Part shown: positions 3,301 to 56,691 of the stretch, piece after piece
Numbering within the stretch: position 1 is the stretch's first letter
How the letters are laid out: each line of letters begins with the position of its first letter
Origin: Prevotellaceae bacterium
GTDB lineage: Bacteria; Bacteroidota; Bacteroidia; Bacteroidales; UBA932
Assembly: GCA_031279695.1 (NCBI GenBank)
Contig: JAITIA010000140.1
Coordinates: forward strand, 12,935-76,934
Direction of reading: 5' to 3'
DNA length: 64,000 nucleotides
Position numbers and translations under genes: made by a program
The notes under the pieces: generated by a model
What the model was told of the DNA's origin: nothing
The model's input: only the letters and a program-made list of their open reading frames with translations
The model's database searches: none

Positions 3301-3471
3301 TTCCTGCGAAACATTGTCGGACATCCAATACCAGAACATCCTCAGTCGGACACTGTCGTCAGGGTTGCGGAAGCCGTCCGCCAGCCTGTCGAACTCCGAT
3401 TGCCGGCATCCGCCCGTGAATAAACACAGCGCTACCAGCGATAATAAAATTGAGATTTGTTTTTTACACAT
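325..3471 (-). CDS. Large secreted glycoside hydrolase lipoprotein (1048 aa). The C-terminal sugar-binding jelly-roll resembles GH2/GH106-type domains; family uncertain.
   Basis: Long ORF with lipoprotein signal peptide MCKKQISILLSLVALCLFTGGC. C-terminal motif VKLNGKSIGNLWTAPYRLRIDKALKKGTNLLEIEVANSW is typical of GH2-type sugar-binding domains. Co-directional with GH43 and the giant gene. Confidence 0.7.
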   Translation of the reverse strand: MCKKQISILLSLVALCLFTGGCRQSEFDRLADGFRNPDDSVRLRMFWYWMSDNVSQEGIERDLEAIKAAGIGSVFIGNIGGEGVPYGKVKLLSDEWWAALHTAMKKASELDIEVGMFNSPGWSQSGGPWIKPQQSMRRLASSSAQVEGGKHVSLKLASPGNEAQDVRVVAYPVLPQNAITEKTIKVNKEQGKSLTVDFHFERPVTVRSFIYSTAARMWTTAELLVKEGSEYRSIKKMMINRTNHNPNVGFIRHAPVVGAIPEAQSSDFRLWLGDNGAGEADITLSTVPYMERYPEKVLGKMFQDAIPSWDSYMWDVQPEAIQEMYIPVERVIDLTDKMSAEGIIEWDAPEGLWTVSRVAMITTGVTNAPASPEGKGLEVDKMNSKHVASHFDAFIGEVLRRIPAKDRRTFRLVVADSYETGGQNWTDGMLERFTKTYGYSPVPYFPVFDGNVVGSRELSDRFLWDLRRLVADMISYGYVAGLKKVANEHGLTLWLQNYGHWGYPGEFLQYGGQSDEVSGEFWTGSWGRGVENRAASSSAHIYGKRKTWAESCTSGGPYFWLYPGTLKIDIDRSFIEGINATLLSTYQHQAYEDWNPGINAWFGMEFNRKNTWFGKMNGFTDYLRSCNLMLQEGNYVADVAYFIGEDAPKMTGITSPELPHGYSYDFINAEVLMTRASMQDGKLALPDGMHYNVLVLPPVETMRPEVLQRISNFVNEGLTIVGQQPKRSPSLVNYPKADGEVAALASKLWADGNEKVRKVGRGQVFSADASLDEVFASLNLPPDFSLASSPKTPALHIHRRLKDGDIYFVTNQSDKPVNFTPEFRVAGRAVELWNPVTREISPAVYSKASEQTTAVQIDLPANGSVFVVFRNKANENISTKQHSVKYETLLTLSNPWKVTFEKGRGAPEEPVTFNKLEDWSKSSDERIRYFSGTATYETTFDIDKLPNEQAYIDLENVMVVARVKLNGKSIGNLWTAPYRLRIDKALKKGTNLLEIEVANSWANKLIGDSRLPNEQRITRTVVNHYKSESKLQASGLIGSCNLIVKKNN

Positions 3472-3556: not shown

Positions 3557-6500
3557 CTACTTTTTGTTGTCAGGTTTATGTGCTTTATATAAATTTTCCG
3601 TATCGACAATATGCCAGAAAAAATTCGTATCATATGCAACACGTTTTGCAAACTGTTCAGCCGCCATGTAAGCCATTTCCGCTTTATGTATAAACATAAT
3701 CTCCGACTTACGGGTATTTGTTTTATTTTGCAGTATTTGTTTCGCAGCCCTACGAGCTATCGTCCAGTTATGCTTCAACTGTTTCGCAGCCCTGCAAATA
3801 ACCGCCAAGTCATACCGAAAGCCATTCGTATTATTACGAATAGTTGTTGAATATAGCTTCAAGTAATTTGCAGCCTTACGCACATCAATAAAGTTGTGCA
3901 GAAACTGTGCCGCAAATTTACGAGCCTTTGGATTATCGCGCAGAAACTGTTTTGCAGCATTACGAACGTCTATCTCATCCTGCTGGAGGTATTCGGCAGA
4001 TTTACGAATCTTTGTCACATTAAGCAACTTTTGTCTCGCAATATTACTAATCTTAGTACTATAATATTCTTGATGAGATTCAAACTTGAGAGCCATTGCT
4101 TCGTTCTTTTCAAACTGTCGCACAAGTTGTAAAGCCTCATTTTGCTTTAGTTTTGCATGTTTTGTAGCACTGATAGCCTCTTCATGTTTATGCAGTAGTA
4201 TTTTAGAATAGAGAATAGTTTTCATTTTTTCTTTGGAGGCAACTATTAATCTCATGTTAGCCTTCTCAAGTTTATTATGAATGTTGTTTACAGATATGAT
4301 AATCTTCGACAGTTGTTGTATATATTCATTCGTAGCAATACGGAGCGTAAACATTTCTTGAAAAATTTCACACGTCAGCTCGTGAGCCTCCGCCTCATTC
4401 ATTTTCTTTTTATGCTGTGTTGTACCATCTTTCAACTTATCTTGAAAAACGCCAATGGTAATATGATTAACCTCTATTTCATTCTGCAGAATTTGTTGCG
4501 AACGGGCGAGAGTTATCTGCTCCTTATTTAACAGCGATTGCGCATGTTTGTTAGCCTTGTCGAGTTGCTGCATGGCATGTTCGGCGTCGATACTTATCCG
4601 CTTTTGTTTTGTTTTAACATTATCGACGTCCAATTCAGCAGTAATATTATTTTGCTGCGCCTGTTTATGAATGCTACTAATCTGTTTCTCGTATTGCTGC
4701 GCCTGTGAAAGCGCAATACGAGTCTGTTCCACGTAATGCTTTGCCTGTTCAAAAGCACTACAAGTTTCTGTCGATTGTTGCAAATTTTGATTTTCGGATA
4801 TGCTAATCGTCGGCAAGTTCAACTGATATTGTTTAATATCTGAATAAAACCTCTTTTTTACTTTAAGCACCTGTTTAACATCCATACATGTTTTCTCAAT
4901 ATTTTGCAGGTTTTGTTCCGCATTAATACTGTTCATCATACACATTAGCAGGTTTTGTTCCGCATTAATACGGTTGTCGGTACATTTATGAAATTTGTGC
5001 ATTGCTTCAATAAAAGCCTTTCCAATATGGTTTTTTAGTTTATTCACATTGTTGAAAGCAATTATCTCATCATTTTTAATTTGATTGGCAGTCGTGCGAG
5101 CCTTCTTCTCTTTAGTTTTATAATCTGCCAACTGTGTTATTGCTATCTGTTTTTTATGCATTAATGCTTTCAAATATTGACTAATATTATCTATATTTTG
5201 CTGCGCCTGTTCATCATCACTGTTAGTAATAAATTTATATAGATGCGGATTTTTTTCGTCAATGTCAGTCTCCGATTCATTCAGCTGCTGGGGCTCGGAC
5301 GCGACGTCAGTTTCCGGCTCATCCGGATGCTGCGGCTCGGCATCGTCGTCAGTTTCGGGTTCATTCTGCTGCTGCTGCTCGGCATCGTCGTTAATCTCCG
5401 ATTCATTCTGCTGTTGTGGCTCGGCATCGTCGTCAGTCTCCGATTCGTTCTGCTGCTGCGATTCGGCTGCGGCGTCAGTTTCCGACTCCTTTTGCTGCAG
5501 TTGTTTAGCCGAATTTTTAGTTTTTATTTTATTTTGCAGAGAATGGTTTTTATCGATACGAGCCTTTTCTGCCAATTGCAGTCTGTATTCAGCATCTATG
5601 GTATTATTCTCTGCATTTTGCAGATTAACTTCCGCATAAATACAATCGTGCGAACATTTTCTCAGTTCCCGTTCCGCATCAATACGAGCCTCAATACATT
5701 TTTGCAGTTTTTTAGTGGCTTTATCGAGATTTTTACCCCCATTCCGCTCTTCCATTACAACATCCATGCGAGCCTCCGCTTCATTATCTTTCAACTGTTT
5801 TGCGCGATTGCTTGCCTTTAATTCGTTTTGTTTAGCAACAAAAAGCTCAATGCGAGCCTTTTTTTCTACTCTCTTCGACCGTGCCACATTTGTTAGAATC
5901 TCTTTATGGTTATTCAGAAGATATTCGGTATCAGAGATATTCTCCGCCTCATTTTGCTGCGCTTGGGGTGCATCGGTACGAGTTTCCGCCTCATTTTGCT
6001 GCGCTTGGGGTGCATCGATACGAGTTTCCGCCTCATTTTGCTGCTTTTGGTCGTCATCGATACAAGTTTCCGCCTCATTTTGCTGTGCATGGTCGTCATC
6101 AATATGAGTTTCCGTCTCATTTTGCTGCACTTGGTCGTCATCGATACCGTCCTGCTCCAAGTTGTTATTTAGTTGTTCGATACCATATCTTTCCTTTTTC
6201 ATATATAGATGTATCGCAGATTTAAAATCCTGAGCCCGTATTTTATTTTTACGATAATGAGATATAAAGATTTCAATCTCTTCCAACGCCTTATTTGCCT
6301 TATTCGCAACCCTGTCAACCTTATCCATTCGTAGCTGCGCCTGTTCCACAACATAATTAGCCTCTTCTTCCTTATACTGCGCCTGTTGGGTAATAATGCA
6401 AGCGTCGGCAAAGTTGTTCAAAGCATGGTAAAAATCGGTGCGAGCATTTCTTATACATTGCCAAATATATTTAGTATTGATGCTGCTCTCCAATCCATAT

Positions 6501-9500
6501 TGCTTAATATATTGTGCAGTACGTACAGCCTCCAACAGGTTTTGCATTGAATTGATGGCAGCCATACGAGCATTTTGCTCGTTTTGCCGAGCGTCGTTGG
6601 CAAGAGCAATAGCCTGTTCATAGTTTTGCTGCGCCTGTTTTGCAAGGTTACGAATATTTGTTTCATTTTGCAGAATATCGTTCGTAAAACCGTCAATTTT
6701 AGTCTTATTCTGCATAATTTGTGACATATTTGCTATTCTTATCTTCCTGTTCATATCAAATTGTTTCTGATGTTTTCTTACCTTGTAAGTATTGATATTA
6801 CGTTGTTTCGCATCGATACCACCGTTAGTTTTAAGCATTAGATTAACTTCAGCAAACATACGTTCGTTCTCCTTGTTCAACTTATTAAGTTGAGTAGCAT
6901 AATCATCGTTCGATTTTTGCATCCAAGTCAGTTCGGTAAATATTCTAATGTTCGAGTCATTGATAAGTTCGAGTTTATACCCTATGATTTCCTCAATAGT
7001 ATTTTGCCGATACTGTTCTGCATCGATACGAGCCTGTGTTGCAATTTGCAGTTGCCGATTGGCGGCAATACAGTCCTGCTCGGTAATTAGCAGTTGCTGT
7101 TGCGCGTCGATACGAGCCTGCGTATATTCTTGCAGACGCGATTCGGCAATACCGACGTCTATATCCTCATCCTTTTTCTTTTGATTAAAAATATTTAAAG
7201 CGGCCTGCTCGTTGCGCTGCATATCCAAGATATGATTTAAAACATTCGATTTATTAATTTGCGCCTGTTCAGCAGCATTACGGGCTTCTGTCTCTATATG
7301 CAGAGCCTCATCAAAACTAAAGACAATTGTCAGATAGTTTTGTATAATGTGTTCGGTATTTTTGCTAATATAGATATGAGTTTGCTTAAACAGTTCGGTA
7401 TTTTTGTTAATGTCGAATATTTTTTGCAGGAAATGTTCGGCACTTATGCCAATCTCCGAATTTTGTTGCGATGACTGTTTTGCAGCAATTCCGGCTTTTT
7501 TCAATTGTTTTTTCTGCTCTTTTGCAGCAAGTTTAGTTTCCTGCACTTTTTGCTTTGTTTCTTTTACCTTAGTTAGCGCCTCCTGCACTTTTTGTTTTGT
7601 TTCGTCGGCAAGTATCCGCGCCTCCTTCACTTTTTGTTTTGTTTCGTCGGTAAGTATCCGCGCCTCTTTTATTTTTTGTTTCGACTCTTCGGCAAGTTTT
7701 TTTTCCTGATTATTCTTTTCGGCAAGTTCGGAAGTAAGGGTTTTTATCTCCGTATGTTTATTAACAATGTCCTGCGTAAGACTATTATCGACCGACTTGT
7801 TTTGCTTAACTGCGGATACAAGGCTGTTAAGCTCATTCTTTTTTTGCTTGATTTGTTGTTTCAGCGCTACAATCTCTTCATTTATTATCTGAATATCTTT
7901 GGAAGCACTACGAGCCTCCTTCATTTTTTGCGTAGCAAGTTCAGCTTCTAAGCGAGCCTTTTTTAAATTTTTCTTATCTTCATATTCCTTAATGAGAATA
8001 TCGTTCAATTCTTGCTGCGCCTGTTGCGCAATATTACAAGTCGGCGACTCTTGTTGCGGCGTCTGTTGAGCGGCGACAATAATCTCTGCCGCTTTTTGCA
8101 GATTTCGTTTAGCAATCATACGAGCCTGTTCCGCCCTTAGCAGCGGCTGTTCTTCATCTATACTGTCTTTTTCTTGTTGTTGCAAATCCTGTTCGACGGT
8201 AATGCTATCCTCTGGCTGTTGTTGCAAATCCTGTTCGACGGTAATACTATCCTCTGGCTGTTGTTGCAAATCCTGTTCGACGGTAATACTATCCTCTGGC
8301 TGTTGTTGCAAATCCTGTTCTACGGCAATGCTATCCTCTGGCTGTTGTTGCAAATCCTGTTCTACAGCAATACTATACTGTTCCTGTTGTTGCAGATTTT
8401 GTTCGATAGCCATACGCGCCTGTTTCGTTTGTTCTATTTGCTGTTCGGCGTCGCGACAAGCCTTTTTCGCTTCCAATAAATTCTGCATGGTAGCTTCACG
8501 ATACTCTTTCGATTGTTGCAGTCGCTGCTCCGCATCAACACGCAAGTCTTCCACATCTTTTAGATTCAGTAATTTCTGCATGAGTTTTCTTCCGCCGTCA
8601 TCCTTCGTTTGATTAGCAATATTACAGGCGTTCATTTCTTTATCATACATCTGTTTAAGCTGTGCGTGCATCTCATGATTTTTTTTACGGGCATATTCCG
8701 TAAGTATGCGCATCTTTGCTCTGTTTTGCATCGACTGTTCAACATCAATGTAATCCTGTTCTGCCTGTTGCAGGTTCTGTTTGGCAGCAATACTGTTCTG
8801 TTCTGCCTGTTGCAGGTTATCTTTGGCAGCAATACTGTTCTGTTCTGCCTGTTGCAGGTTATGTTTGGCAGCAATGATATCTTCTTTGCTGCTTTGCTTC
8901 ATTCGATTAACAGTATCGCAAGCCGTAATATATTTTGACTGAAAATGATTGTTCTCTGTTCGCGCATTGTTCTCGATGTGCATAGCACGTTCAACAAGTA
9001 TTCGAGCCTGTTCAATGTTTAAATTCGCCTGTTCCACAGCAATACTTGCCTCTTGCTCTTCTTGCTGTCGCATATTTGCAATTGTCAAATCAATGCTTGC
9101 TATTCGCATATTATGTTCGGCAATAATACGAGCCTCTTTAGCTCTTTCAAGTTTACGTTCAGCTTTAATACGCGCCTTTTCATTCTCTTTGAGCAACTGT
9201 ACGGCACGCATAATGTTTTCCGGTCTGGTTCCCTGCACTCGATTAAGAGCATTGCGAGCCTCTATCTCTTTATTTTTTGTCAGTTCAAGATTCGTTTGTC
9301 TATACTGCTCTCTTTGCTTAGCCTTTTCCACAAGTTGGCGAGCCTGTTCAATGTTTAGCTTCGCCTGTTCAACAGTAATACATATATCATCAATTTTTTG
9401 CTGATATTGTTTAACTTCGCCACGTGCCTTAGCCTCCTGTTTAAGTTTCTGTTCGGCAGCAAGACGAGCCTCTTCTTTTTGTTTTAGTTTCTGTTCGGAA

Positions 9501-12500
9501 GCAAGACGAGCGTCTTCCAACTCTTGCGGATTTTGCGCAGTAGCATTACGAGCGTCTTCCAACTCTTGCGGATTTTGTGCGGTAGCATTACGGGCGTCTT
9601 CCAACTCTTGCAGATTTTGTGCGGTAGCATTACGAGCGTCTTCCAACTCTTGCAGATTTTGTGCCGTAGCATTACGAGCGTCTTCCAACTCTTGCAGATT
9701 TTGCCCCGTAGCATTACGAGCGTCTTCCAACTCTTGCGGATTTTGTGTGGCAGCAATACGAGCCTCTTTCAACTTTTGCGAATTTTGTGCGGCAGCAATA
9801 CGAGCCTCTTTTAACTCTTGCAGATTTTGTTCGGAAGCAATACGGTCATTTTCCGCCAACTGAAGTTTCTGTTCGGAAGCGATAAATGCTTCTCTAACTT
9901 GTTTAAGGCGCTGTTCGGCAGCGATACGCTCTTCTCCCTCCTGTGTTAGACAGTGTTCGGAAGCGATACGCACGTCTTCTTTTAGTTTCACATACTCTTT
10001 GGCAGCAGCACGTACTGCTTTCTCGTATTTTATGTTCTGTTCGGAAGCGATACGCTTTTTCTCCGCTTGTTCCCGCTGTTGTTCTGCTACGATACGTTCC
10101 TCTTCCGCTTCTATGAGATTTTGTTCGGCAGCAATATGTTCTTCTTTCGCTTTTTGCAGATTTTGTTCGGCAACGATACGTTCCTCTGTAATTTTTTGCA
10201 AATCCTGTTTTGCAATAATACAAAAGGCTTCTGCTTCTTTAAGGTTTTTTTCAGCATCAAGATTTACTGTTAGATTTTTTGTCAGGGACTGGTTATACTC
10301 TATGCGAGCTTTATTCACGTTTTGCTTAGCTTGTTTAAATTCTGTGCGAGCCTTTTCCTCTTGTTGCAGTTTCAGTTCAACAGCGCCACGAGCCTTTTTC
10401 GCTTGTTTTAATTTCAGTTCAACAGCGCTGCGAGCCTTTTTCTCCTGTTTCAGTTTCAGTTTAACAGCACTACCATTCATATCTTCTATTTGTAGATTTT
10501 GCCCCGTAGCAATACGCTCTTTTTCTTTTTGTTTGAGATACTGTTCGGCAATAATACTCGCCTCTTCTTTCAGTTTGAGATACTGTTCGGTAGCTATGCG
10601 TTTTTTATCTTTGTTTTGTAGAGAATGTTCGGTAGCGATACGTTCTTCTTCTATTTGTTTGAGCTGCTGTTCGGCAGTAATGCGTTCTTCTTTCAGTTGT
10701 TTGAGATGCTGTTCGGCAACGCTACGAGCCGCTTCCACTTTTTGCAGATTTTGTTCGGCAACGCTACGAGCCTCTTCCGCTTTTTGCAGATTTTGTTTGG
10801 CAATGCTACTAACCTCTTTTAACTTTTGTAGATTTTGTTGGGCAACAATACGCTCCGCTTCCACTTTTTGCAGATTTTGTACCGCAGCGATACTCTCCTC
10901 TTTCGCTATTTGCAGTTCTTGTTCAACAGCGATACGCATATCTTTCTCTATTTGCAGCCTTTGTTTAGCAGTCAAATAAACTACTCTATTTTTTTTCGGA
11001 GACTGTTTACTCTTTATGTCAGCCTTATTTTCTGTTTCATTAAACTGTTTATACTTTAGTCCGGCTTGATTCTCTTTTTGCTGAGCATTTTTTACGTCTG
11101 TACGAGCCTTTTTTTCTTCTTCGAGCTTTAGCCCTAATTTTCTACGAGCCTTTCTTCCTTCTACGAGTTTTGATTTTAATTCACTACGAGCCTTTGATTC
11201 TTCTTTTAGTATTGATTTTAATTCACTACGAGCCTTTGATTCTTCTTCGAGTTTTAGTTTAACAATACTGCTATTTACTTCTTCTTTATGCAGATTTTGT
11301 TTGGCAAGGATACGAGCCTCTTTTAACTTTTGCAGATTTTGTGTGGCAAGGATACAAGCCTCTTTTAACTTTTGCAGATTTTGTGTGGCAATGCTACAAG
11401 CCTCTTCCGCTGTTTGCAGTTGCTGTTCGGCAGCAATACGCATCGCTTCCGACATTTGCAATTTCTTTTCCACAATCATACGAGCATAGTCCGTTTTATT
11501 TTGTGCCTGATTAAGATTTATTTGCATATCCTTCTCACTTTGCGTAGTGTTTTCTACAAGACGGCGAGCCTGTTCAACTATTATCGTCTGATATTCGAGC
11601 GCAATGCGAGCCTCTTTAATTTTTTGCAGATTTTGTTTGTAAATCGTGCGAGCCTCTTCTGCTTTTTGTTTTTCCAGTTCGTCGGCAATACGGGCATTTT
11701 CTTCTTCTTGCTGACGCTGTTCGACGGTAATACGAGCCTCTTCCCATTGTTGCATAGACTGTTCAGCAGCAATACGCGCCTGTTCAAAATTTTGCTGCGC
11801 CTGTTTGGTAGCAATACAAGCATTTTCAAGTTCTTGTTGAGCCTGTTCGCTTTTAGTGCAAGCCTTCGAATGTTTTTTCTCCGCATATTGCAGAGCAGAT
11901 CTAACCTTTAGTTTATTGTGTTTAGCGTCTGCATTCTCTTGTACATACTGCTCGTTGTTTTGCTTTTGCCGATGCAACAGGTTACTATTCTCTTCCAACT
12001 GTTGCAGAATTTCTTTTGCAAGTATGCTGTTCTCTCCCTCTTCCTGCACAACTCTTTGCGCACGATTGCGGCACTCCTCCTCTTTTTGCTGCAATTGTAC
12101 GGCAAGCATTCGTCCCTCGTTCATTGTTTTAGCCGTCTCTTCAACACGATTAGCCGCCTCCTGCAATTTTTGCTGAGCCTGTATAAGTTGAATACGAGCC
12201 TGCTCCTTATATTGCTGCAATTGATTAGCCGTATCAATAGCCTTTAACTCATCTTGCTGACACTTATTAAGACTGTTACTAAGTTCCTCCTTATTCTGAT
12301 TACAATTAACAAGAGTCATACGGGCATTTTCCACTTCTTGCTGACGTTGTTCGGCATCAATACGGGCATTGTCTTCTTCTTGCTGACGCTGTTCGGCATC
12401 AATACGGGCATTGTCTTCTTCTTTTCGACGCTGTTTGGCAGCAATACGTGCCTTTTCTTCTTCTTGCTGACGCTGTTCGGCAGCAATACGTGCCTTTTCT

Positions 12501-14104
12501 TCTTCTTTTCGACGCTGTTTGGCAGCAATACGTGCCTTTTCTTCTTCTTGCTGACGCTGTTTGGCAGCAATACGTGCCTTTTCTTCTTCTTGCTGACGCT
12601 GTTCGGCAGCAATACGTGCCTTTTCTTCTTCTTGTTTCTCTATTTTGGTGGCAATACGTATGTCATCAACTTTTTGTCGGGTCTGTTCGGCAATAATACG
12701 AGCCTCTTCCCATTTTTGTCGAGTCTGTTCAGCAGCAATACGAGCCTGGTCATAATTTTTATGCGCCTGTTTCTCAACAATATTATTCTGTTCCCATTGT
12801 TGCTGCGCCCGTTTGGTAGCACTACGAGCCTTTTCTAATTCTTGTTTCGCCTGTTCGCTTTTAGTGCAAGCCTTCGCATAGTTTTTTTCTAAATATTGCA
12901 CAGCGGATCTGATTTTTGTTCTATTGTGTTTAGCGTCTGCATTCTCCTGTGCATACTGCTCATTGTTTTGCGTATGCTGATGCAAAAGATTACTAATCTC
13001 TTCCAACTGTTGCAGAATTTCTTTTGCAAGTATGCTGTCCTCTCCCTCTTCCTGTATAACTCTTTGCGCACGATTGCGGCACTCCTCCTCTTTTTGCTGC
13101 AATTGTACCACAAGCATACGTTCCTCGTTCATTGGTTTATCCGTCTCTTTAACACGATTAACAGCATCCTGCAATTTTTGCTTCAGCTGTGTAAGATTAA
13201 TACGAGTCTGCTCCTTGTGTTGCTGAGATAGATTAACAGTATCAATAGCCTTTAACTCATCTTGCTTACACTGATTAAGACTGTTGCTAAGTTTCGCCTT
13301 ATTTTGACTACACTTTACAAGAGCAGTACGGGCATTTGCCGCTGCTTTTTGTCGTTGTTCGGCAATAATACGCGCCTTTTCTGCTTCTTTTTGTCGTTGT
13401 TCGGCAGCAATACGCACTTTTTCCACTGCTTGCTGCCTCTGTTCGGCAGCAATACGCGCCTCTTTATCTTTTTTATATTTCTGTTCGGCAGCAATACGCG
13501 CCTCTTCTTTTTTTGTCAGTTTCTGTTCGGCAACAATATTAGTTTTTTTCGACTGTTGCGTACTTTGTTCGGCAACAATGTTAGTTTTTTTCGACTGTTG
13601 CTGACGTTGTTCGGCAACAATACTATCAATTTCTGCTTGTTGCTGACGTTGTTCGGCAACAATACTATCAACTTCTGTTTGTTGCATACTTTGTTCGGTA
13701 GCAATACTATCAACTTCTGCTTGTTGCGTACTTTGTTCGGCAACAATACTATCAACTTCTGCTTGTTGCGTACTTTGTTCTGCAACAATACTATCAACTT
13801 CTGCTTGTTGCGTACTTTGTTCTGCAACAATACTATCAACTTCTGTTTGTTGCGTACTTTGTTCGGCAACAATACTATCAACTTCTGCTTGTTGCATACT
13901 TTGTTCGGCAACAATACTATCAACTTCTGCTTGTTGCGTACTTTGTTCAGCAACAATATTTATCTCTTCCTGTTCTTTGAGTTGTTGCTCCGACTCAATA
14001 CGAATAGATTCATTATTATGCTGCAGCGAATTGTCATTTTTTGTTTCTTTCCTAAAAATATTATTCCAGAAACCACGCTTACTACTTATTTTTATAAACT
14101 TCAT
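3557..14104 (-). CDS. Giant (3515 aa) tandem-repeat coiled-coil protein made of about 250 degenerate 14-residue repeats (consensus ARIAAEQxLQxxEE). No signal peptide or TM segment. Function unknown.
   Basis: Uninterrupted 10,548-nt ORF. Translation is dominated by A/E/Q/R/K/I/L with hydrophobic residues spaced i, i+7 (two heptads per 14-mer). The N-terminus MKFIKISSKRGFWNNIFRKE is polar. Start codon lies 4 nt after the GH43 stop. Opposite-strand ORFs are repeat artefacts. Confidence 0.85.
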   Translation of the reverse strand: MKFIKISSKRGFWNNIFRKETKNDNSLQHNNESIRIESEQQLKEQEEINIVAEQSTQQAEVDSIVAEQSMQQAEVDSIVAEQSTQQTEVDSIVAEQSTQQAEVDSIVAEQSTQQAEVDSIVAEQSTQQAEVDSIATEQSMQQTEVDSIVAEQRQQQAEIDSIVAEQRQQQSKKTNIVAEQSTQQSKKTNIVAEQKLTKKEEARIAAEQKYKKDKEARIAAEQRQQAVEKVRIAAEQRQKEAEKARIIAEQRQKAAANARTALVKCSQNKAKLSNSLNQCKQDELKAIDTVNLSQQHKEQTRINLTQLKQKLQDAVNRVKETDKPMNEERMLVVQLQQKEEECRNRAQRVIQEEGEDSILAKEILQQLEEISNLLHQHTQNNEQYAQENADAKHNRTKIRSAVQYLEKNYAKACTKSEQAKQELEKARSATKRAQQQWEQNNIVEKQAHKNYDQARIAAEQTRQKWEEARIIAEQTRQKVDDIRIATKIEKQEEEKARIAAEQRQQEEEKARIAAKQRQQEEEKARIAAKQRRKEEEKARIAAEQRQQEEEKARIAAKQRRKEEDNARIDAEQRQQEEDNARIDAEQRQQEVENARMTLVNCNQNKEELSNSLNKCQQDELKAIDTANQLQQYKEQARIQLIQAQQKLQEAANRVEETAKTMNEGRMLAVQLQQKEEECRNRAQRVVQEEGENSILAKEILQQLEENSNLLHRQKQNNEQYVQENADAKHNKLKVRSALQYAEKKHSKACTKSEQAQQELENACIATKQAQQNFEQARIAAEQSMQQWEEARITVEQRQQEEENARIADELEKQKAEEARTIYKQNLQKIKEARIALEYQTIIVEQARRLVENTTQSEKDMQINLNQAQNKTDYARMIVEKKLQMSEAMRIAAEQQLQTAEEACSIATQNLQKLKEACILATQNLQKLKEARILAKQNLHKEEVNSSIVKLKLEEESKARSELKSILKEESKARSELKSKLVEGRKARRKLGLKLEEEKKARTDVKNAQQKENQAGLKYKQFNETENKADIKSKQSPKKNRVVYLTAKQRLQIEKDMRIAVEQELQIAKEESIAAVQNLQKVEAERIVAQQNLQKLKEVSSIAKQNLQKAEEARSVAEQNLQKVEAARSVAEQHLKQLKEERITAEQQLKQIEEERIATEHSLQNKDKKRIATEQYLKLKEEASIIAEQYLKQKEKERIATGQNLQIEDMNGSAVKLKLKQEKKARSAVELKLKQAKKARGAVELKLQQEEKARTEFKQAKQNVNKARIEYNQSLTKNLTVNLDAEKNLKEAEAFCIIAKQDLQKITEERIVAEQNLQKAKEEHIAAEQNLIEAEEERIVAEQQREQAEKKRIASEQNIKYEKAVRAAAKEYVKLKEDVRIASEHCLTQEGEERIAAEQRLKQVREAFIASEQKLQLAENDRIASEQNLQELKEARIAAAQNSQKLKEARIAATQNPQELEDARNATGQNLQELEDARNATAQNLQELEDARNATAQNLQELEDARNATAQNPQELEDARNATAQNPQELEDARLASEQKLKQKEEARLAAEQKLKQEAKARGEVKQYQQKIDDICITVEQAKLNIEQARQLVEKAKQREQYRQTNLELTKNKEIEARNALNRVQGTRPENIMRAVQLLKENEKARIKAERKLERAKEARIIAEHNMRIASIDLTIANMRQQEEQEASIAVEQANLNIEQARILVERAMHIENNARTENNHFQSKYITACDTVNRMKQSSKEDIIAAKHNLQQAEQNSIAAKDNLQQAEQNSIAAKQNLQQAEQDYIDVEQSMQNRAKMRILTEYARKKNHEMHAQLKQMYDKEMNACNIANQTKDDGGRKLMQKLLNLKDVEDLRVDAEQRLQQSKEYREATMQNLLEAKKACRDAEQQIEQTKQARMAIEQNLQQQEQYSIAVEQDLQQQPEDSIAVEQDLQQQPEDSITVEQDLQQQPEDSITVEQDLQQQPEDSITVEQDLQQQEKDSIDEEQPLLRAEQARMIAKRNLQKAAEIIVAAQQTPQQESPTCNIAQQAQQELNDILIKEYEDKKNLKKARLEAELATQKMKEARSASKDIQIINEEIVALKQQIKQKKNELNSLVSAVKQNKSVDNSLTQDIVNKHTEIKTLTSELAEKNNQEKKLAEESKQKIKEARILTDETKQKVKEARILADETKQKVQEALTKVKETKQKVQETKLAAKEQKKQLKKAGIAAKQSSQQNSEIGISAEHFLQKIFDINKNTELFKQTHIYISKNTEHIIQNYLTIVFSFDEALHIETEARNAAEQAQINKSNVLNHILDMQRNEQAALNIFNQKKKDEDIDVGIAESRLQEYTQARIDAQQQLLITEQDCIAANRQLQIATQARIDAEQYRQNTIEEIIGYKLELINDSNIRIFTELTWMQKSNDDYATQLNKLNKENERMFAEVNLMLKTNGGIDAKQRNINTYKVRKHQKQFDMNRKIRIANMSQIMQNKTKIDGFTNDILQNETNIRNLAKQAQQNYEQAIALANDARQNEQNARMAAINSMQNLLEAVRTAQYIKQYGLESSINTKYIWQCIRNARTDFYHALNNFADACIITQQAQYKEEEANYVVEQAQLRMDKVDRVANKANKALEEIEIFISHYRKNKIRAQDFKSAIHLYMKKERYGIEQLNNNLEQDGIDDDQVQQNETETHIDDDHAQQNEAETCIDDDQKQQNEAETRIDAPQAQQNEAETRTDAPQAQQNEAENISDTEYLLNNHKEILTNVARSKRVEKKARIELFVAKQNELKASNRAKQLKDNEAEARMDVVMEERNGGKNLDKATKKLQKCIEARIDAERELRKCSHDCIYAEVNLQNAENNTIDAEYRLQLAEKARIDKNHSLQNKIKTKNSAKQLQQKESETDAAAESQQQNESETDDDAEPQQQNESEINDDAEQQQQNEPETDDDAEPQHPDEPETDVASEPQQLNESETDIDEKNPHLYKFITNSDDEQAQQNIDNISQYLKALMHKKQIAITQLADYKTKEKKARTTANQIKNDEIIAFNNVNKLKNHIGKAFIEAMHKFHKCTDNRINAEQNLLMCMMNSINAEQNLQNIEKTCMDVKQVLKVKKRFYSDIKQYQLNLPTISISENQNLQQSTETCSAFEQAKHYVEQTRIALSQAQQYEKQISSIHKQAQQNNITAELDVDNVKTKQKRISIDAEHAMQQLDKANKHAQSLLNKEQITLARSQQILQNEIEVNHITIGVFQDKLKDGTTQHKKKMNEAEAHELTCEIFQEMFTLRIATNEYIQQLSKIIISVNNIHNKLEKANMRLIVASKEKMKTILYSKILLHKHEEAISATKHAKLKQNEALQLVRQFEKNEAMALKFESHQEYYSTKISNIARQKLLNVTKIRKSAEYLQQDEIDVRNAAKQFLRDNPKARKFAAQFLHNFIDVRKAANYLKLYSTTIRNNTNGFRYDLAVICRAAKQLKHNWTIARRAAKQILQNKTNTRKSEIMFIHKAEMAYMAAEQFAKRVAYDTNFFWHIVDTENLYKAHKPDNKK

Positions 14105-24425: not shown

Positions 24426-24695
24426 ATGGCAAAAGAATCGATGAAAGCACGGGAAGTTAAACGTGCGAAACTTGTTGAAAAATACGCGGAAAAACGCAAA
24501 GCGCTGAAAGCGGCAGGCGATTATGAAGGACTGGCAAAACTGCCTAAAAATTCAAATCGCGTGCGTCTGCACAACCGCTGTTCTCTTACAGGCCGCCCGA
24601 AAGGCTACATGCGCCTGTTTGGAATCAGCCGGATACAGTTTCGCGAAATGGCTTCAAAAGGTTTGATTCCCGGTGTGAAGAAGGCAAGCTGGTAG
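24426..24695 (+). CDS. rpsN: 30S ribosomal protein S14
   Basis: [20 protein letters not shown]...[40 protein letters not shown] is S14. Confidence 0.96.
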
Positions 24696-24718
24696 AAACA
24701 AATTAATATTGCATATAT

Positions 24719-25171
24719 ATGATTGACACAATTATACATAGAAATACATGGTCGGGACGAGCGGCTTATTCATTCCTTTGGGTGAGCTTTGTGCTGTTTT
24801 TTGTGTATGCCAGTATAGTGTCATCAATATTTATGAAAGATAAAAGTTTTACTGAAGAATATTTGAAACTTCAAAGTAATATCCCTGCGATGTTTGTTAA
24901 TTTTGGTGTGATGTTTATGTTGGTTATTGACAATTTATGGAACAGATATACGGAAAACAGGTATTTTCTTTTACTTGTTGTGTTTTCCATGTTTATTATC
25001 ATGGCATTATACGGACATGCGCAGGCTTATTTCGATAACAGTAGAAACTATATTTCTTTAATTAAAAAGTCGTGGATTTCGTATCTGCTGCAAGGTCTGT
25101 TTGTTTTGATACTGTTGATTTCGAAATATAAGACAATAGAAATTATTAAAGACGATTTAGAAGAAGTGTGA
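24719..25171 (+). CDS. Hypothetical small polytopic membrane protein (about 4 TM helices) inserted in the spc ribosomal operon
   Basis: 150-aa ORF with hydrophobic segments (FLWVSFVLFFVYASIVSSIF, FGVMFMLVI, FLLLVVFSMFIIMALY, LLQGLFVLILLI). AT-rich (about 33% GC) against roughly 45-50% in flanking r-protein genes. Its stop overlaps the next gene's ATG (TGATG). Confidence 0.6.
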   Translation: MIDTIIHRNTWSGRAAYSFLWVSFVLFFVYASIVSSIFMKDKSFTEEYLKLQSNIPAMFVNFGVMFMLVIDNLWNRYTENRYFLLLVVFSMFIIMALYGHAQAYFDNSRNYISLIKKSWISYLLQGLFVLILLISKYKTIEIIKDDLEEV

Positions 25172-25671
25172 TGATTAATGTAGTGTTATTTTTGATATTG
25201 TTGTTTTTGTGCGTCGGTTTTTACACAGTACAGCGCAAACTGCCTTTGCAGACAGCAGAGGCAGGAGCGATTACAGGCGTAAACAAACAGAACTGCGCAT
25301 CGAAACGGTTTTCGTACCGGCATGATTTTGTGATTAATGGGAAACCCATAAATCCATCGAAACATATCATGCTTGTTGTTGAAGGCAATTGTATGAGCCA
25401 ACGCAAAATTGAAAACGGAGATATTATTTTTGTGCGAAAATTTGACAAATCGTTCACGAAAAATCAAATTAAACCGGATGATATTCTGTTGATATGGCAC
25501 GATAGCGAACAGTATAAAGGCTATAAAATACGAGTCCTTGATAATGACAAATCGGAAAACAACAACGAATTAAATACATTCTACTATAAAGAGGATGGCA
25601 ATAAACATTTATCCTGTCATAATATAAACAATATTAAAGGAGTAGTAAAATATAAACTGCAAAAAAAGTAA
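25171..25671 (+). CDS. Membrane-anchored S24/LexA-UmuD-like (clan SF) peptidase-fold protein with Cys in the nucleophile position; inserted in the spc operon
   Basis: N-terminal TM helix MINVVLFLILLFLCVGFYTV, then VVEGNCMSQRKIENGDIIFVRKF matching the V-x-G-D-S-M...I-x-D-G-D-hh-hV box of LexA/UmuD/SPase I with S replaced by C. A candidate general-base Lys lies in YKGYKIRVL about 45 residues downstream. Start taken at ATG 25171, coupled to the upstream stop. Confidence 0.55.
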   Translation: MINVVLFLILLFLCVGFYTVQRKLPLQTAEAGAITGVNKQNCASKRFSYRHDFVINGKPINPSKHIMLVVEGNCMSQRKIENGDIIFVRKFDKSFTKNQIKPDDILLIWHDSEQYKGYKIRVLDNDKSENNNELNTFYYKEDGNKHLSCHNINNIKGVVKYKLQKK

Positions 25672-25739
25672 AAATAAATAAATTTTTGGATATCGGACGA
25701 GCAATCGTCGAAAATTAAAATTAAAACAAAGAAAAGAAA

Positions 25740-26135
25740 ATGACTGATCCAATCGCAGATTTCCTTACAAGAATCCGTAACGCGGTAAAGGCAAATCACA
25801 AAGTGGTGGAAATTCCATCATCGAAAATGAAACGGGAACTGACAAGAGTTCTCCACGAAAAAGGCTATATCCTGAGCTACAAATTTGTAGAAGGAGCGCC
25901 GTTTGCGACCATTAAAATCGCATTAAAGTATCATCCCGAAACAAAAAATCCGGCAATCAAATGCCTGAAACGCATCAGCCGTCCGGGTTTGCGACGCTAT
26001 ACAAATGCATCGTCGCTGCCGCGAGTTTTGAACGGGCTTGGCATAGCAATAGTCTCAACATCAAGAGGTGTGATGACCGATAAAGAGGCTCGCGAACAGC
26101 ATGTTGGCGGCGAAGTAATCTGCTATGTATATTAA
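25740..26135 (+). CDS. rpsH: 30S ribosomal protein S8
   Basis: [15 protein letters not shown] is the diagnostic S8 N-terminus. Confidence 0.97.
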
Positions 26136-27889: not shown

Positions 27890-28354
27890 ATGAATTTAAA
27901 TAGTTTAAAACCGGCAAAAGGATCAACGCACAAAGTTAAACGAGTAGGTCGCGGACAAGGATCGGGACGTGGAGGCACATCTACGCGCGGACACAAAGGC
28001 GCACAGTCCCGTTCGGGATATTCGCGAAAATTCGGATTTGAAGGCGGTCAAATGCCTATTCAGCGCCGTTTACCAAAATATGGTTTTAAAAATCGAAACC
28101 GTGTTGAATATAAACCTGTCAATATCTCTACATTGCAGGAACTGGCAGAAAAACGAAACTTGACCGTTATAGATATTCAAACACTGATAGAAACAGGGTT
28201 GATTTCTAAAAACGATAAAGTTAAAATCTTGGGAAATGGTGAATTGAATGTAACACTGGAAGTTACCGCTCATGCTTTTTCCAAGTCAGCAACCGCCGCA
28301 ATAGAGGCAAAGCAGGGAAAAGTAATAAAACTGAAAAACAATAAGGATGAATAA
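27890..28354 (+). CDS. rplO: 50S ribosomal protein L15
   Basis: [37 protein letters not shown] is L15. Confidence 0.96.
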
Positions 28355-29690
28355 ACTGATGACCCTTTTAGGTATTACCCGGTTTGTACAAACCGTTCAG
28401 AATATCTACCGGATTGAAGAACTGCGTAAACGCATCATTTACACCCTGCTTCTTTTGCTGGTGTTTCGTTTCGGCAGTTTCATCGTCATACCCGGCATCG
28501 ACCCCACAATGATAGGGTCGTTCACCAAATCGGCACGCGAAGGTTTGATGGGTATGCTCGACTTGTTTTCGGGAGGCGCAATGTCGAACGCATCAATCTT
28601 TGCACTCGGCGTAATGCCTTATATATCAGCGTCAATTGTAATACAGTTGATGACTATAATGGTGCCAACCCTGCAAAGAATTCAGCGCGAAGGCGAAAGC
28701 GGACGACGTAAAATAAACCAGTATACAAGGCTGCTGACCTTAGTCATTCTCCTGATTCAAGCCCCAGTATATCTGGTGCATCTGACACAGAAAGTTCCGC
28801 CCGAAGCATTCATGGTCAAAGGATTTTTGGGATACAATTTTCCAGCCACCGTTTGTCTGATTGCAGGAACAATGTTTGTGATGTGGCTCGGCGAGCGCAT
28901 CACCGACAGAGGTTTAGGTAACGGAATATCGCTCCTGATCATGATAGGAATTATTTCGCGCCTGCCTCACGCTCTGATGGCGGAAGTAGAAACACGTTTC
29001 AACGAAACAACCGGCGGTCCGCTGTTTTTGATAGTCGAAATACTGCTGCTACTGTTTGTGTTCATGGCAAGTATAGCCCTGGTGCAGGCAGTGCGAAAAA
29101 TCCCCGTACAGTATGCCAAACGAATAATAGGCACAAAACAGTATGGAGGCGTGCGTCAGTATATACCGTTGAAAATCAACGCGGCAGGAGTTATGCCCAT
29201 TATCTTTGCGCAAGTATTTACATTTATTCCGCTGCTGTTTTCAGGCTTCGATTCGACAAGCAAATTTGCCCGAGCCTTTGAAATGTACGGATTCTGGCAC
29301 ACCTTCCTTCATGCCCTGCTTGTGGTTGTGTTTACCTATTTTTATACGGCAATAACAGTCAATCCCACAATGATGGCGGAAGAAATGAAGAAAAACGGAG
29401 GCTTTATTCCGGGTATAAAACCGGGGAAGAAAACGGCGGAAGAAATCGACAAAATAATGTCGCGCATAACCTTTCCGGGCTCACTGTTTCTGGCTTTGAT
29501 AGCAATTTTGCCAACATTCGCATACCGTTTTGGCGTTGGAGAAAGTTTTTCGCAATTCTATGGAGGTACATCGTTGCTGATTCTTGTTGGCGTTGTGCTT
29601 GACACCCTGCAGCAAATCGAAAGTCATCTCCTGCTCCGGCACTACGACGGCTTGATGAAAACAGGACGGCTGAAAGGACGCACATCGTAA
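28347..29690 (+). CDS. secY: Preprotein translocase subunit SecY
   Basis: 447 aa with 10 TM segments. Position after rplO and SecY-type motifs (GIMPYISASIVIQLM). Confidence 0.95.
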   Translation: MNKLMTLLGITRFVQTVQNIYRIEELRKRIIYTLLLLLVFRFGSFIVIPGIDPTMIGSFTKSAREGLMGMLDLFSGGAMSNASIFALGVMPYISASIVIQLMTIMVPTLQRIQREGESGRRKINQYTRLLTLVILLIQAPVYLVHLTQKVPPEAFMVKGFLGYNFPATVCLIAGTMFVMWLGERITDRGLGNGISLLIMIGIISRLPHALMAEVETRFNETTGGPLFLIVEILLLLFVFMASIALVQAVRKIPVQYAKRIIGTKQYGGVRQYIPLKINAAGVMPIIFAQVFTFIPLLFSGFDSTSKFARAFEMYGFWHTFLHALLVVVFTYFYTAITVNPTMMAEEMKKNGGFIPGIKPGKKTAEEIDKIMSRITFPGSLFLALIAILPTFAYRFGVGESFSQFYGGTSLLILVGVVLDTLQQIESHLLLRHYDGLMKTGRLKGRTS

Positions 29691-29946
29691 GTAATTGTTT
29701 ATAAGATATAAAAGCACAGGTATCATGAAGGAAAACCACACTCCCGGATTGTTTTCTGCCCTTGCGGTAAATCGTCTGTCCGAGTGTATGGTTGCAGCCA
29801 AAAAACCGAATATCAATTTGCCGGCAGTAATTTGTGATAGCCGGTCGAATGGACCTGATATTAAAAAGGGAACAAAATCGGTTGCCTACAATGCGTATGT
29901 AACTGTTTTATAAGCATATACGTGTGAATTATAAAAATATCCGAAC

Positions 29947-31410
29947 ATGAATAAAGAAAATGTAAAAATAAAATTCTACAGTGGAGAAAATATACCACTC
30001 GAACTGCACAAGGTTCGTATCGTTCAGAAATTGAATCTTGTACCGATAGAGCGACGTTTGGAAGCTCTTTACGAAGGCGGATTCAATACGTTCAGACTAA
30101 GCACGAAAGACGTATTTCTCGACATGCTCACCGACAGCGGTACAAACGCAATGAGCGACATGCAATTATCGTCGATGATGCGTGCCGACGACGCATACGC
30201 CGGCTCTCAAAGTTTCTACCGATTGCAGCAGGCAGTTGAAGATGTATTGAAAAAGAAGTACTTGCTGCCGGTGCATCAGGGACGCGCCGCCGAAAATATC
30301 CTGTCGAACGCCTATATCCGCAAAAAAGGCGACCTGATACCAATGAACTATCATTTCACTACCGCCCTGGCTCATATCACCCAATACGGCGGACGAATAG
30401 TGGAACTTCTTTATGATGAGGCATATAAAATCGATTCGCGGCATCCCTTCAAAGGCAATTTGAACGTCGAAAAACTCGACGCAGTAATCCGCGAAACCGG
30501 CAAGGAAAATATCCCCTTTATCAGAATGGAAGCCTCGACAAATCTTATTGGTGGACAGCCATTTTCGATTCAGAACATGCGCGAAGTACGCAAAATAGCC
30601 GACCGATACGGCATCCGTTTAGTGCTCGACGCCAGTCTGCTGGGCGAAAATGCATACCTGATTCTTCAGCGCGAACCCGAATTTGCCGACTCGTCGATGG
30701 CAGAAGTGATTGCAATTATAACAGGATTAGCGGATATCGTTTATTTCTCGGCGCGAAAATTGAGTTCGTCGCGCGGCGGCGGCATCTGTACCAACGACCT
30801 GGCAATTTACCGCGAATTAGAAGCGCTTGTGCCTTTGTTTGAGGGTTTTCTGACATACGGCGGCATCTCTGTCCGCGAAATTGAAGCAATGGCAGTTGGT
30901 TTGTACGAAACACTCGACGAAACAATGATTTGCCAAAGTCCGCAGTTTATCTCATATCTGGTCGAATCGCTCACCAGCAAGGGCGTACCAATGGTAACGC
31001 CTCCCGGAGTGCTTGGCGCCCACGTCGACGCCATGCAAATCTGTTCGCACATCCCTCAAACACAGTATCCTGCCGGAGCGCTGGCAGCCGCCTTTTATCT
31101 TGTCTCCGGCGTTCGGGGCATGGAGCGCGGCTCAATCTCCAACCAGCGCGACGAAAACGGCAACGAAACATACGCCGACATGGAACTGCTGCGCTTGGCT
31201 GTGCCGCGACGTGTATTCACCCTGTCGCAAATTAAATACGTGGAAGACCGTTTAGTATGGCTGTACGAAAATCGTAACCTGATAGGCGGACTTAAATTTG
31301 TTTACGAGCCGCCAGTGCTGCGCTTCTTCATGGGCGGGCTCGAACCGGTGTCGGACTGGACCAACAAACTGATTGTGAAATTCAAAGAAGACTTCGGCGA
31401 CAGTCTGTAA
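29947..31410 (+). CDS. tnaA: Tryptophanase / tyrosine phenol-lyase family beta-eliminating lyase (PLP-dependent)
   Basis: 487 aa. N-terminal FRLSTKDVFLDMLTDSGTNAMSD..MRADDAYAGSQSFY is collinear with E. coli TnaA (DVFIDLLTDSGTGAVT..MMRGDEAYSGSRSYY). The PLP-lysine region SARKLSSSRGGGI is present. Confidence 0.85.
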   Translation: MNKENVKIKFYSGENIPLELHKVRIVQKLNLVPIERRLEALYEGGFNTFRLSTKDVFLDMLTDSGTNAMSDMQLSSMMRADDAYAGSQSFYRLQQAVEDVLKKKYLLPVHQGRAAENILSNAYIRKKGDLIPMNYHFTTALAHITQYGGRIVELLYDEAYKIDSRHPFKGNLNVEKLDAVIRETGKENIPFIRMEASTNLIGGQPFSIQNMREVRKIADRYGIRLVLDASLLGENAYLILQREPEFADSSMAEVIAIITGLADIVYFSARKLSSSRGGGICTNDLAIYRELEALVPLFEGFLTYGGISVREIEAMAVGLYETLDETMICQSPQFISYLVESLTSKGVPMVTPPGVLGAHVDAMQICSHIPQTQYPAGALAAAFYLVSGVRGMERGSISNQRDENGNETYADMELLRLAVPRRVFTLSQIKYVEDRLVWLYENRNLIGGLKFVYEPPVLRFFMGGLEPVSDWTNKLIVKFKEDFGDSL

Positions 31411-31536
31411 AAAACCTGTTTGCAGGCTTGTCCAAATTCTGTTTGAATATCGCTTGACAAGAAAATATACAGGAAATTGCCGCAATTGTTGCAGGATAAT
31501 AATGTTTTGCCTAATTTTGCAGCGATTTTCTAATCC

Positions 31537-31609
31537 GACTCCGTAGCTCAGTTGGTAGAGCAATTGACTCTTAATCAATGGGTCGAGAGTTCGAGCCTCT
31601 CCGGGGTCA
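31537..31609 (+). tRNA. tRNA-Lys (anticodon CTT)
   Basis: Manual cloverleaf: acceptor GACTCCG/CGGGGTC, D-arm GCTC-AGTTGGTA-GAGC, anticodon stem ATTGA/TCAAT with loop CTCTTAA, T-arm GAGAG-TTCGAGC-CTCTC, discriminator A. Confidence 0.85.
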
Positions 31610-56059: not shown

Positions 56060-56293
56060 ATGAAAACATTGACAGTTACCGATATGGAGGCGCATTTCTC
56101 TGATATAATTGGGGAAGTGATAAATGGAGAACAATTCCAAATTAGTTTTGATGCATCAAAAGAGCCGGTTGCAATGATTGTTCCCGTGCAAAAACAAAAA
56201 AAATCAAGAAAAATAGGTGTTTTGGACGGAAAAGCATTATTTAAAATAAACGGGGAGAGTAAAATTTCTGAAAAAGAATTTTTGGGAATATGA
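56060..56293 (+). CDS. Type II antitoxin (Phd/YefM-like)
   Basis: 77 aa. A 4-nt overlap (ATGA) with the downstream PIN-toxin gene gives classic TA organisation. Confidence 0.7.
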   Translation: MKTLTVTDMEAHFSDIIGEVINGEQFQISFDASKEPVAMIVPVQKQKKSRKIGVLDGKALFKINGESKISEKEFLGI

Positions 56294-56691
56294 ATTATTT
56301 ATTGGATACTCATGCATTCATTTGGGCGGCATTAGAAACCAACAAATTAAGCAAAAATGCTCAAAATATTATTCTAAACGGCAGCAATGATATTTTTGTA
56401 AGTACTGTTTCTTTTTGGGAAATATCACTAAAAACAAGAATTAATAAATTTCTATTTGAAAATATAAACATAATGGATTTTGCTCAATATGCAAAAGATA
56501 TGGATTTTGCAATATTGGATATGAAAGAATATGAAGCAATAACATTTCATAAATTACCATTAAAAGATAATCATAAAGATCCCTTTGATAGAATGTTAAT
56601 ATGGCAGGCAATAACCCAAAATATGACAATGATAAGTAAAGATAAATTATTTAAACAATATAAAGAAAATGGTCTAAAAATAATTTGGTAA
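56290..56691 (+). CDS. PIN-domain ribonuclease toxin (VapC-like)
   Basis: MNYLLDTHAFIWA start with conserved acidic residues (D6, E, D) of the PIN fold. Confidence 0.8.
   Translation: MNYLLDTHAFIWAALETNKLSKNAQNIILNGSNDIFVSTVSFWEISLKTRINKFLFENINIMDFAQYAKDMDFAILDMKEYEAITFHKLPLKDNHKDPFDRMLIWQAITQNMTMISKDKLFKQYKENGLKIIW

Follow-up and report, generated by a model that had tools for sequence, protein, structure and literature searches.

LexA, UmuD and the lambda repressor cI, members of MEROPS family S24, cleave themselves when triggered by a filament of RecA on single-stranded DNA (ssDNA). Phage lambda also encodes RexAB, an exclusion system. The S10-spc string of ribosomal protein genes is among the most conserved bacterial gene orders. 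Here, we describe a two-gene cassette located inside the spc operon, between rpsN and rpsH, of a Prevotellaceae bacterium. The DNA analysed, hereafter the window, is 64,000 nucleotides long (GCA_031279695.1, contig JAITIA010000140.1, positions 12,935 to 76,934 of the forward strand) and is numbered from its first base. Open reading frame (ORF) A, at 24719-25171 of the + strand, encodes 150 amino acids with four predicted transmembrane (TM) helices. ORF B, at 25171-25671 of the same strand, encodes 166 amino acids counted from an ATG codon; its product is a membrane-anchored protein of the S24 type, similar to LexA and UmuD. Our preferred interpretation, with a probability of roughly 40%, is that the cassette is a mobile module in which a membrane-tethered, self-cleaving switch would be paired with a four-TM effector, and that it occupies a permissive spacer.

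Several features tie ORF B to LexA, UmuD and cI. These are the fold, a G-x-[S/C]-M motif, a downstream lysine in a K-x-R strand and an Ala-Gly pair about 40 residues before the nucleophile position. After removal of its N-terminus, ORF B would also be similar in size to UmuD'. Conversely, about 90% of the ORF B family have cysteine, not serine, at the nucleophile position. The N-terminus is a TM anchor, unlike the DNA-binding domain of LexA and cI or the free arm of UmuD. The family has an S-S-x-P-H motif of its own, and ORF B is encoded after a four-TM partner, unlike UmuD (after umuC) or autoregulated repressors. By analogy, the cassette would resemble RexAB in its logic, which combines a small four-TM inner-membrane protein (RexB, 144 amino acids; ORF A, 150) with a cytoplasmic sensor. 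Both are two-gene modules with a prophage immunity or moron-like position. The differences are that ORF B, unlike RexA, has an S24-like fold and that the membrane protein comes first in the cassette. We considered ORF A as a RexB homologue and rejected this; the hhalign probability was 0.2% and there was no match to the Pfam RexB family.

Small gene insertions in the conserved ribosomal cluster have been described for Gammaproteobacteria and Bacilli (Brandis 2021, PMC8046335). Housekeeping genes are involved in the cases detailed there, and most of the sites are inter-operon (tusDCB, bfd-bfr, ilv-leu) or within rpoBC (nrdHEF). The cassette is similar in that a few non-ribosomal genes lie within the ribosomal cluster. 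It differs in being inside the spc operon between two ribosomal protein genes, in being an AT-rich accessory module, and in its origin from Bacteroidota, a group outside that study.

The insert is flanked by rpsN (24426-24695, + strand), encoding ribosomal protein S14 (89 amino acids; Pfam PF00253, E = 2.6e-27), and rpsH (25740-26135, + strand), encoding ribosomal protein S8 (131 amino acids; Pfam PF00410, E = 5.5e-50). The 1,044 bp between them (24696-25739) hold only ORF A and ORF B, both on the same strand. Hence, the list of ORFs and the Pfam matches bear out the earlier note on this DNA, made from the sequence, which had proposed a two-gene cassette at this site. The note had also read a TGATG overlap between the two genes. 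Indeed, the ORF A stop codon, TGA (25169-25171), and the ORF B start codon, ATG (25171-25173), have one base in common. An alternative ORF B start, GTG at 25168, lies one codon 5' of this ATG. The spacer between the rpsN stop and ORF A (24696-24718, + strand) is AT-rich and only 23 nucleotides long. Its first bases (TAGAAAC...) are like the native spacers of relatives, as judged by comparison with empty sites.

Base composition sets the cassette apart. The GC content is 32.0% for ORF A and 34.5% for ORF B, compared to 41.5% for rplE, 48.5% for rpsN, 44.9% for rpsH and 46.3% for rplF. At 33% overall, the cassette ranks among the lowest 4.3% of segments of equal size across the 64 kb (z = -1.84; mean 42%). 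The drop is real but moderate, not extreme. The contrast described in the earlier note stands, although its figure of 45-50% for the flanks is slightly high, the neighbours being at 41-49% and the window mean at 42%.

We compared the locus with related genomes by scanning for the S8 protein in one genome per species. This yielded 80 Bacteroidota loci, 76 of them with both rpsN and rpsH. The S14-S8 gap in these 76 loci was 17-648 bp, mostly 20-170 and typically about 80, in agreement with the prior expectation that the two genes are normally adjacent. No relative of ORF A or ORF B was found in any of the 76 gaps. The nearest genome in this species-representative set has only 79% S8 identity, and the genus is thinly sampled.

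Two further contigs carry the cassette. In SRR14710902, a Logan contig (L003) matches positions 24644-25761 with 100% identity and crosses both junctions. A contig in the European Nucleotide Archive from another sample (L084) starts in the 3' end of rpsN and runs into the same cassette with 86% nucleotide identity. Its left junction is the same as in the window and the translational coupling of ORF A and ORF B is kept. Because L003 spans both junctions, and the diverged L084 has the same rpsN junction, the cassette is no assembly artefact. We also considered whether the ends of L003 were a sign of co-existing empty sites. This was rejected, as the break points (24644 and 25761) are inside rpsN and rpsH rather than at the cassette borders. 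They more likely reflect strain single-nucleotide polymorphisms in the conserved flanks. The earlier note had named an assembly error, or an old arrangement found family-wide, as outcomes that would count against it. Neither was borne out, and we regard the chance of an assembly chimera or of an ancient lineage-wide arrangement as close to negligible. The window does derive from a metagenome-assembled genome, and the closest genome for comparison is as distant as stated above. Against this, the junctions recur in two contigs, one of them belonging to a diverged strain in another sample, the cassette is missing from 76 of 76 related genomes, and a conserved leader of rpsH is intact 3' of the insert.

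The cassette is common to the window and to at least one diverged sister lineage, represented by L084. Hence, the insertion is older than the split of these two lineages and is not very recent. Comparing the two, the ratio of nonsynonymous to synonymous substitution rates (dN/dS) is 0.28 for ORF A (dS 0.33) and 0.24 for ORF B (dS 0.48). Therefore, both ORFs are protein-coding and under purifying selection. Such selection means that the proteins are maintained; it says nothing on what they do.

The conserved leader lies at 25688-25711 (+ strand) and consists of GGATATCGG followed by a short hairpin (GGAUAUCGG). In the alignment of empty sites, the same element is found 25-45 nucleotides 5' of rpsH in 18 related loci. 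The stem comprises 5 bp, with compensatory changes in 3 pairs, and GGATATCGG is invariant in Bacteroidales. At this position, hairpins of another sequence (AATATTGTCCCG...CGGGATCAATTT; in Flavobacteria, AATTGGTTTCAGGTTCG...CGAAAACC) are found in other Bacteroidota clades. A scan of the cassette region with Rfam gave no match at E <= 5, and the element is not in Rfam 15. Neither is it among the 20 leaders described by Eckert & Weinberg 2020 (PMC7247131). We consider it a candidate S8 autoregulatory leader. Because this native element is intact 3' of ORF B, the insert must lie in the variable part of the spacer. The inserted DNA extends roughly from 24715 to 25687, the right limit being at about 25672-25687. 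No convincing direct or inverted repeats flank it, either as terminal repeats or as a target-site duplication. It holds only ORF A and ORF B, with neither transposase nor integrase. Taken together, it is well supported that the rpsN-rpsH spacer carries, in its variable and AT-rich part, a horizontally acquired two-gene module of roughly 970 bp.

ORF B matches the Pfam family Peptidase_S24 (PF00717) above the gathering score (E = 5.5e-6). No helix-turn-helix domain was matched in Pfam; the N-terminus is a single hydrophobic helix with no DNA-binding domain. In NCBIfam, neither ORF A nor ORF B had a match above cut-off, and PHROGs gave only weak repressor-type matches for ORF B. Word-indexed searches with ORF B recovered a single non-orthologous relative (41% identity). 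An exhaustive HMMER search using a two-sequence profile recovered 166 cluster representatives at 50% identity. Nearly all are 160-190 amino acids long and match from end to end; most of the clusters have no Pfam annotation. We modelled ORF B with AlphaFold2 using a 96-sequence alignment (predicted local distance difference test score 91.7; predicted template modelling score 0.83). In a Foldseek search of the PDB, the best matches to this model were all LexA, UmuD' or lambda cI, with 12-18% identity in the structural alignments. ORF B has both the sequence profile and the predicted fold of S24.

Conservation was assessed in the same 96 sequences. Cys74 (codon 25390-25392, + strand) is part of the G-x-C-M motif, which reads GNCM in the window protein. 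In hhalign and hmmsearch profile alignments it aligns with LexA Ser119 and UmuD Ser60, at the nucleophile position. Hence, the window protein has cysteine in place of the serine nucleophile (G-x-S-M) of S24. Cysteine occurs here in 86 members and serine in 7, the latter being the only replacement seen in more than 2 of the 96. Lys119 (codon 25525-25527, + strand) belongs to a Y-K-I-R motif and is kept in 91/96; motif and spacing suggest that it takes the general-base position of LexA Lys156. Arg121 in the same motif is invariant (96/96). Gly72 and Met75 of G-x-C-M, Thr136, Ser148 and Gly157 are nearly invariant. Upstream, Ala31-Gly32 (codons 25261-25266, + strand) form the core of a (V)-E-A-G-(P) motif, with alanine in 90/96 and glycine in 93/96. 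The pair is 10-15 residues past the TM helix, within a predicted strand. The LexA cleavage motif, VAA/GEP, can be compared with V-E-A-G-P in ORF B, and Ala31-Gly32 is a candidate self-cleavage site. Since cysteine and serine interchange at position 74, the lysine is conserved and an Ala-Gly pair lies upstream, we infer that ORF B may be a functional LexA-type autoprotease with cysteine for serine. A regulated proteolytic switch was one of the functions suggested in the earlier note, and the LexA-like S24 domain with its conserved catalytic-type residues would fit this.

A third conserved position is His150 (codon 25618-25620, + strand) of the S-S-x-P-H motif, which is specific to the ORF B family. 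Histidine is present in 89/96. It is also invariant in alignment A5, where isoleucine replaces the lysine in 5 of 12 Muribaculaceae members, which form a subclade (P0156-P0159, P0126). The Ala-Gly pair, the cysteine and the histidine of S-x-x-H are kept in this subclade, so that the catalytic partner of the cysteine may, in some members, be the histidine (Cys/His) and not the lysine (Cys/Lys).

The loss of lysine would also fit a non-catalytic membrane complex, for instance a superinfection-exclusion or immunity module of prophage type, in which the S24-like fold serves for scaffolding or dimerisation only. Non-catalytic relatives exist in clan SF, SipA being an example. ORF A is a small four-TM protein, as are many exclusion proteins, and, as described below, one relative of the pair has a moron-like position on a phage-like contig. 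However, the Ala-Gly pair, cysteine or serine at position 74, and the lysine are kept in about 90-95% of the 96 members, which is hard to explain without catalysis. Furthermore, of the replacements for Cys74, only serine, the other possible nucleophile, is seen in more than two of them. We consider a purely structural role unlikely.

The orientation of ORF B can be predicted from charge. The TM helix spans roughly residues 2-21. In 95 of the 96 members, lysine and arginine are more frequent in the 15 residues past the helix than before it, with 2.6 such residues after the helix. The N-tail has a median length of 1.5 amino acids and almost no basic residues. Given the positive-inside rule, ORF B is probably a single-pass protein, N-out/C-in, with the S24 domain in the cytoplasm. 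Cytoplasmic placement is compatible with a thiol nucleophile. Members of the family have 2.7 cysteines on average.

The opposite topology would be expected if ORF B were an exported, periplasm-facing protein like the type I signal peptidases (S26) or SipA. Envelope proteins would then be the substrates or chaperone clients of ORF B, and ORF A a partner in the membrane or an immunity component; V-E-A/G would be a signal-peptidase site or irrelevant. The architecture is shared, since type I signal peptidases also combine one N-terminal TM helix with a clan-SF domain, and V-x-A obeys the -3/-1 rule. NCBIfam gave a weak match to sigpep_I (E = 0.034; 14 bits, the cut-off being 47). Nevertheless, in 95/96 members the charges are placed opposite to those of a signal anchor, with virtually no N-tail, no lysine or arginine before the helix and 2.6 after it. 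The candidate site, 10-15 residues past the helix with basic residues between, is atypical for the c-region of a signal peptide. A cysteine nucleophile and 2.7 cysteines per member are unusual for periplasmic domains, and the conserved Ala-Gly pair is in the same polypeptide. Pfam gives S24 and no S26 match, and the top Foldseek matches are LexA, UmuD and cI only. We therefore judge a signal-peptidase-like role improbable.

ORF A had no significant match in Pfam, NCBIfam, PHROGs, PADLOC or, using profiles, the PDB. For the ORF A family as a whole, Pfam returned only scattered, sub-threshold matches to TM proteins. A nine-sequence alignment (A6) identified ten invariant residues: W21, F27, F28, Y30, N61, G63, M67, D71, H100 and S121. 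Asn61 and Asp71 are polar and inside predicted helices; H100 is glutamine in a further homologue (L103). We then looked at gene order wherever loci were sampled (window, L084, L001, L085, L089, L090/91, L093, L094-98, L099-101, L103, L106-109 and L086/87). A gene of the ORF A family is directly 5' of the ORF B gene in 12/12 locus classes, with a spacing that ranges from overlap to 23 nucleotides. In one class the partner is decayed. Here (L086, 7700-8000; L087, 310-610), the ORF A homologue is 5'-truncated with an internal stop, and the ORF B homologue (P0153, with 55 member sequences) is intact. ORF A is the obligate four-TM partner of ORF B. The ORF B family is an uncharacterised S24-superfamily variant with a membrane anchor, cysteine at the nucleophile position and this obligate partner.

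Elsewhere, the pair is hosted by contigs of Prevotellaceae and Muribaculaceae type, at unrelated sites. Neighbours include sprA, resB/ccsA, UDP-glucose dehydrogenase with a large immunoglobulin-like protein (HigBA nearby), peptidase M18 and a capsule/PDDEXK region. In every case the pair is AT-rich relative to its host, with GC contents of 28-34% versus 53% (L089), 31-34% versus 55% (L090) and 29% versus 41.5% (L106). The non-orthologous pair nearest to the cassette (41% and 37% identity) comes from an 11.9-kb contig. Genes around it gave five PHROG matches: phage lipoprotein, RNase H, a transcriptional regulator, phrog_4068 and PAPS reductase. Relative to these neighbours, the pair is encoded on the other strand, which is a moron-like position. 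The L086 copy is about 2 kb upstream of the Septu genes PtuA/PtuB detected by PADLOC. A second, soluble S24 peptidase, together with Septu, lies within 2-5 kb downstream of the ORF B homologue on this contig. Two metagenome scans at the Joint Genome Institute were also made, one without a match and one with a single locus. Collectively, these contexts are typical of a mobile accessory module of small size. Horizontal acquisition, as proposed in the earlier note, is consistent with these unrelated sites, with the phage-like contig, with AT-richness and with the lack of a counterpart in the 76 related genomes. As a whole, that earlier reading is partly supported, the parts upheld being the origin of the cassette and the protease-like nature of ORF B.

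In the window, the 23-nucleotide spacer between rpsN and ORF A is too short for a separate promoter. Terminator-like and sigma-70-like sites across the cassette region were not above shuffled expectation, and no Bacteroidetes -7 motif was found in the last 300 nucleotides before rpsH. Based on these signals, the cassette would be read through by transcription of the spc operon, and co-transcription with growth-coupled expression may be expected. The essential genes from rpsH to secY lie downstream.

The spacer between rpsN and rpsH has taken up other DNA. In the closest relative by S8 identity (L004, the Prevotellaceae metagenome-assembled genome Pcl387_bin39, JAITKF010000004.1), an ORF of 86 amino acids with two TM helices is at the same rpsN-rpsH site (2690-2950). 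Its GC content is 0.36, compared to 0.44 for the locus. We considered this ORF as a relative of ORF A or ORF B and rejected it, as no relationship was found. Spacers of the Rikenellaceae type (L023, L026, L047, L048 and L060; Tidjanibacter, Rikenellaceae and Alistipes) are 260-650 bp long and non-coding. In L023, L026 and L048 they contain CTATCTTTGGCGGCTT, a match to the Bacteroidetes -7 motif TAnnTTTG, which may be an internal promoter before rpsH. The unrelated insert in L004, and the long Rikenellaceae spacers, suggest that the rpsN-rpsH spacer is a recurrently used permissive site. This would explain the position of the cassette in the spc operon, as the spacer would supply transcription and guard the insert from imprecise deletion.

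The same protection could keep a selfish or neutral passenger in place. Briefly, a cassette with no host function could persist since imprecise deletion would harm the essential flanking genes. In favour of a passenger, no connection with ribosome function is apparent, another insert is tolerated at this site in L004, mobility genes and terminal repeats were not found at the insert, and the ORF A partner is decayed in one other genome. However, both ORFs are intact in two lineages separated by a dS of 0.33-0.48, with dN/dS of 0.24-0.28 and the coupling kept. At such divergence, neutral sequence is expected to hold frameshifts or stop codons. We find a passenger quite improbable.

The self-cleaving switch that we favour could work as follows. 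The N-terminal helix would anchor ORF B at the cytoplasmic side of the membrane. When triggered, ORF B would cut itself at Ala31-Gly32, just inside the membrane, by means of its Cys74/Lys119 site and possibly His150. By precedent, the trigger could be a RecA*-ssDNA filament resulting from DNA damage or phage replication. Cleavage would free a soluble core of 135 amino acids, and the membrane complex of ORF A and ORF B would change state. ORF A would be the effector, for example a membrane-permeabilising, channel-like or exclusion protein that is no longer gated. We would class the module among mobile elements with an accessory or conflict role, for example prophage morons, abortive-infection modules or exclusion modules.

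A number of observations weigh against this model. The hhalign alignment with LexA stops short of the Ala-Gly motif. Hence, the correspondence between Ala31-Gly32 and the LexA cleavage site is suggested by motif similarity, spacing and a predicted strand. The replacement of lysine by isoleucine in one subclade means that a mechanism of the Ser/Lys type is not universal in the family. A ribosomal operon would be a hazardous place for a toxic effector, which would be made constitutively. The connection to defence or phages comes from two contexts only, and the databases of such systems gave little: no PADLOC-DB 2.0 model matches ORF A or ORF B at E <= 1, PHROGs gave nothing beyond the weak repressor matches, and nothing was found in IMG/VR using the ORF B alignment or in GenBank phages using tblastn with ORF A and ORF B. 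We infer each of three steps: cleavage, what triggers it and a role for ORF A as effector. A literature search for S24 proteins with a membrane anchor, for S24 as part of defence systems and for cysteine variants of LexA found nothing relevant.

A more ambitious proposal is that Bacteroidales have a previously undescribed class of two-component membrane switch, which the pair represents. Here, in a LexA-like autoprotease, a membrane anchor would have taken the place of the DNA-binding domain and cysteine that of serine, possibly with a Cys/His or Cys/Lys site. The autoprotease would relay an intracellular danger signal (RecA* filaments or a phage cue) directly to a four-TM effector without transcription. 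The result would be post-translational, SOS-like abortive infection or exclusion; in this lineage, its dosage would track ribosome synthesis via the spc operon. We regard this extension as doubtful.

Other parts of the window are described for completeness. Gene order from rplC to secY is canonical. The S10-spc-alpha order stated in the earlier note holds for this section; the alpha operon does not follow secY. Instead, the ribosomal cluster ends at secY and the next ORF (29947-31410) encodes a beta-eliminating lyase of the tryptophanase or tyrosine phenol-lyase type. It is followed by a transfer RNA gene (31537-31609), and the usual map-infA-rpmJ-alpha operon is not next (region 28347-31609). 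At 56060-56691 and 57164-57852, the DNA is very AT-rich (down to 27% GC) and contains two two-gene pairs (77 and 133 amino acids; 95 and 134 amino acids), which from their sequences look like antitoxin and PIN-domain toxin modules. An Rfam match to the group II intron catalytic domain is at 63404-63482 on the - strand (54.4 bits; gathering score 40). Also on the - strand, a single ORF of 3,515 amino acids (3557-14104) is followed by one of 1,048 amino acids (325-3471).

Given how conserved the S10-spc gene order is, it is unusual for the spc operon to harbour an accessory, foreign membrane module that two lineages maintain under purifying selection. As the cassette shows, the rpsN-rpsH spacer of Bacteroidales tolerates foreign genes. 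The cassette also exposes an unannotated family, comprising about 166 clusters at 50% identity, of membrane-anchored proteins similar to LexA and UmuD, with cysteine at the nucleophile position and a four-TM partner. If self-cleavage is true, the LexA paradigm, which is one of transcriptional control, would be widened to include a membrane complex under direct control. The pair would then be a testable candidate for a phage-conflict or DNA-damage module of gut Bacteroidales.

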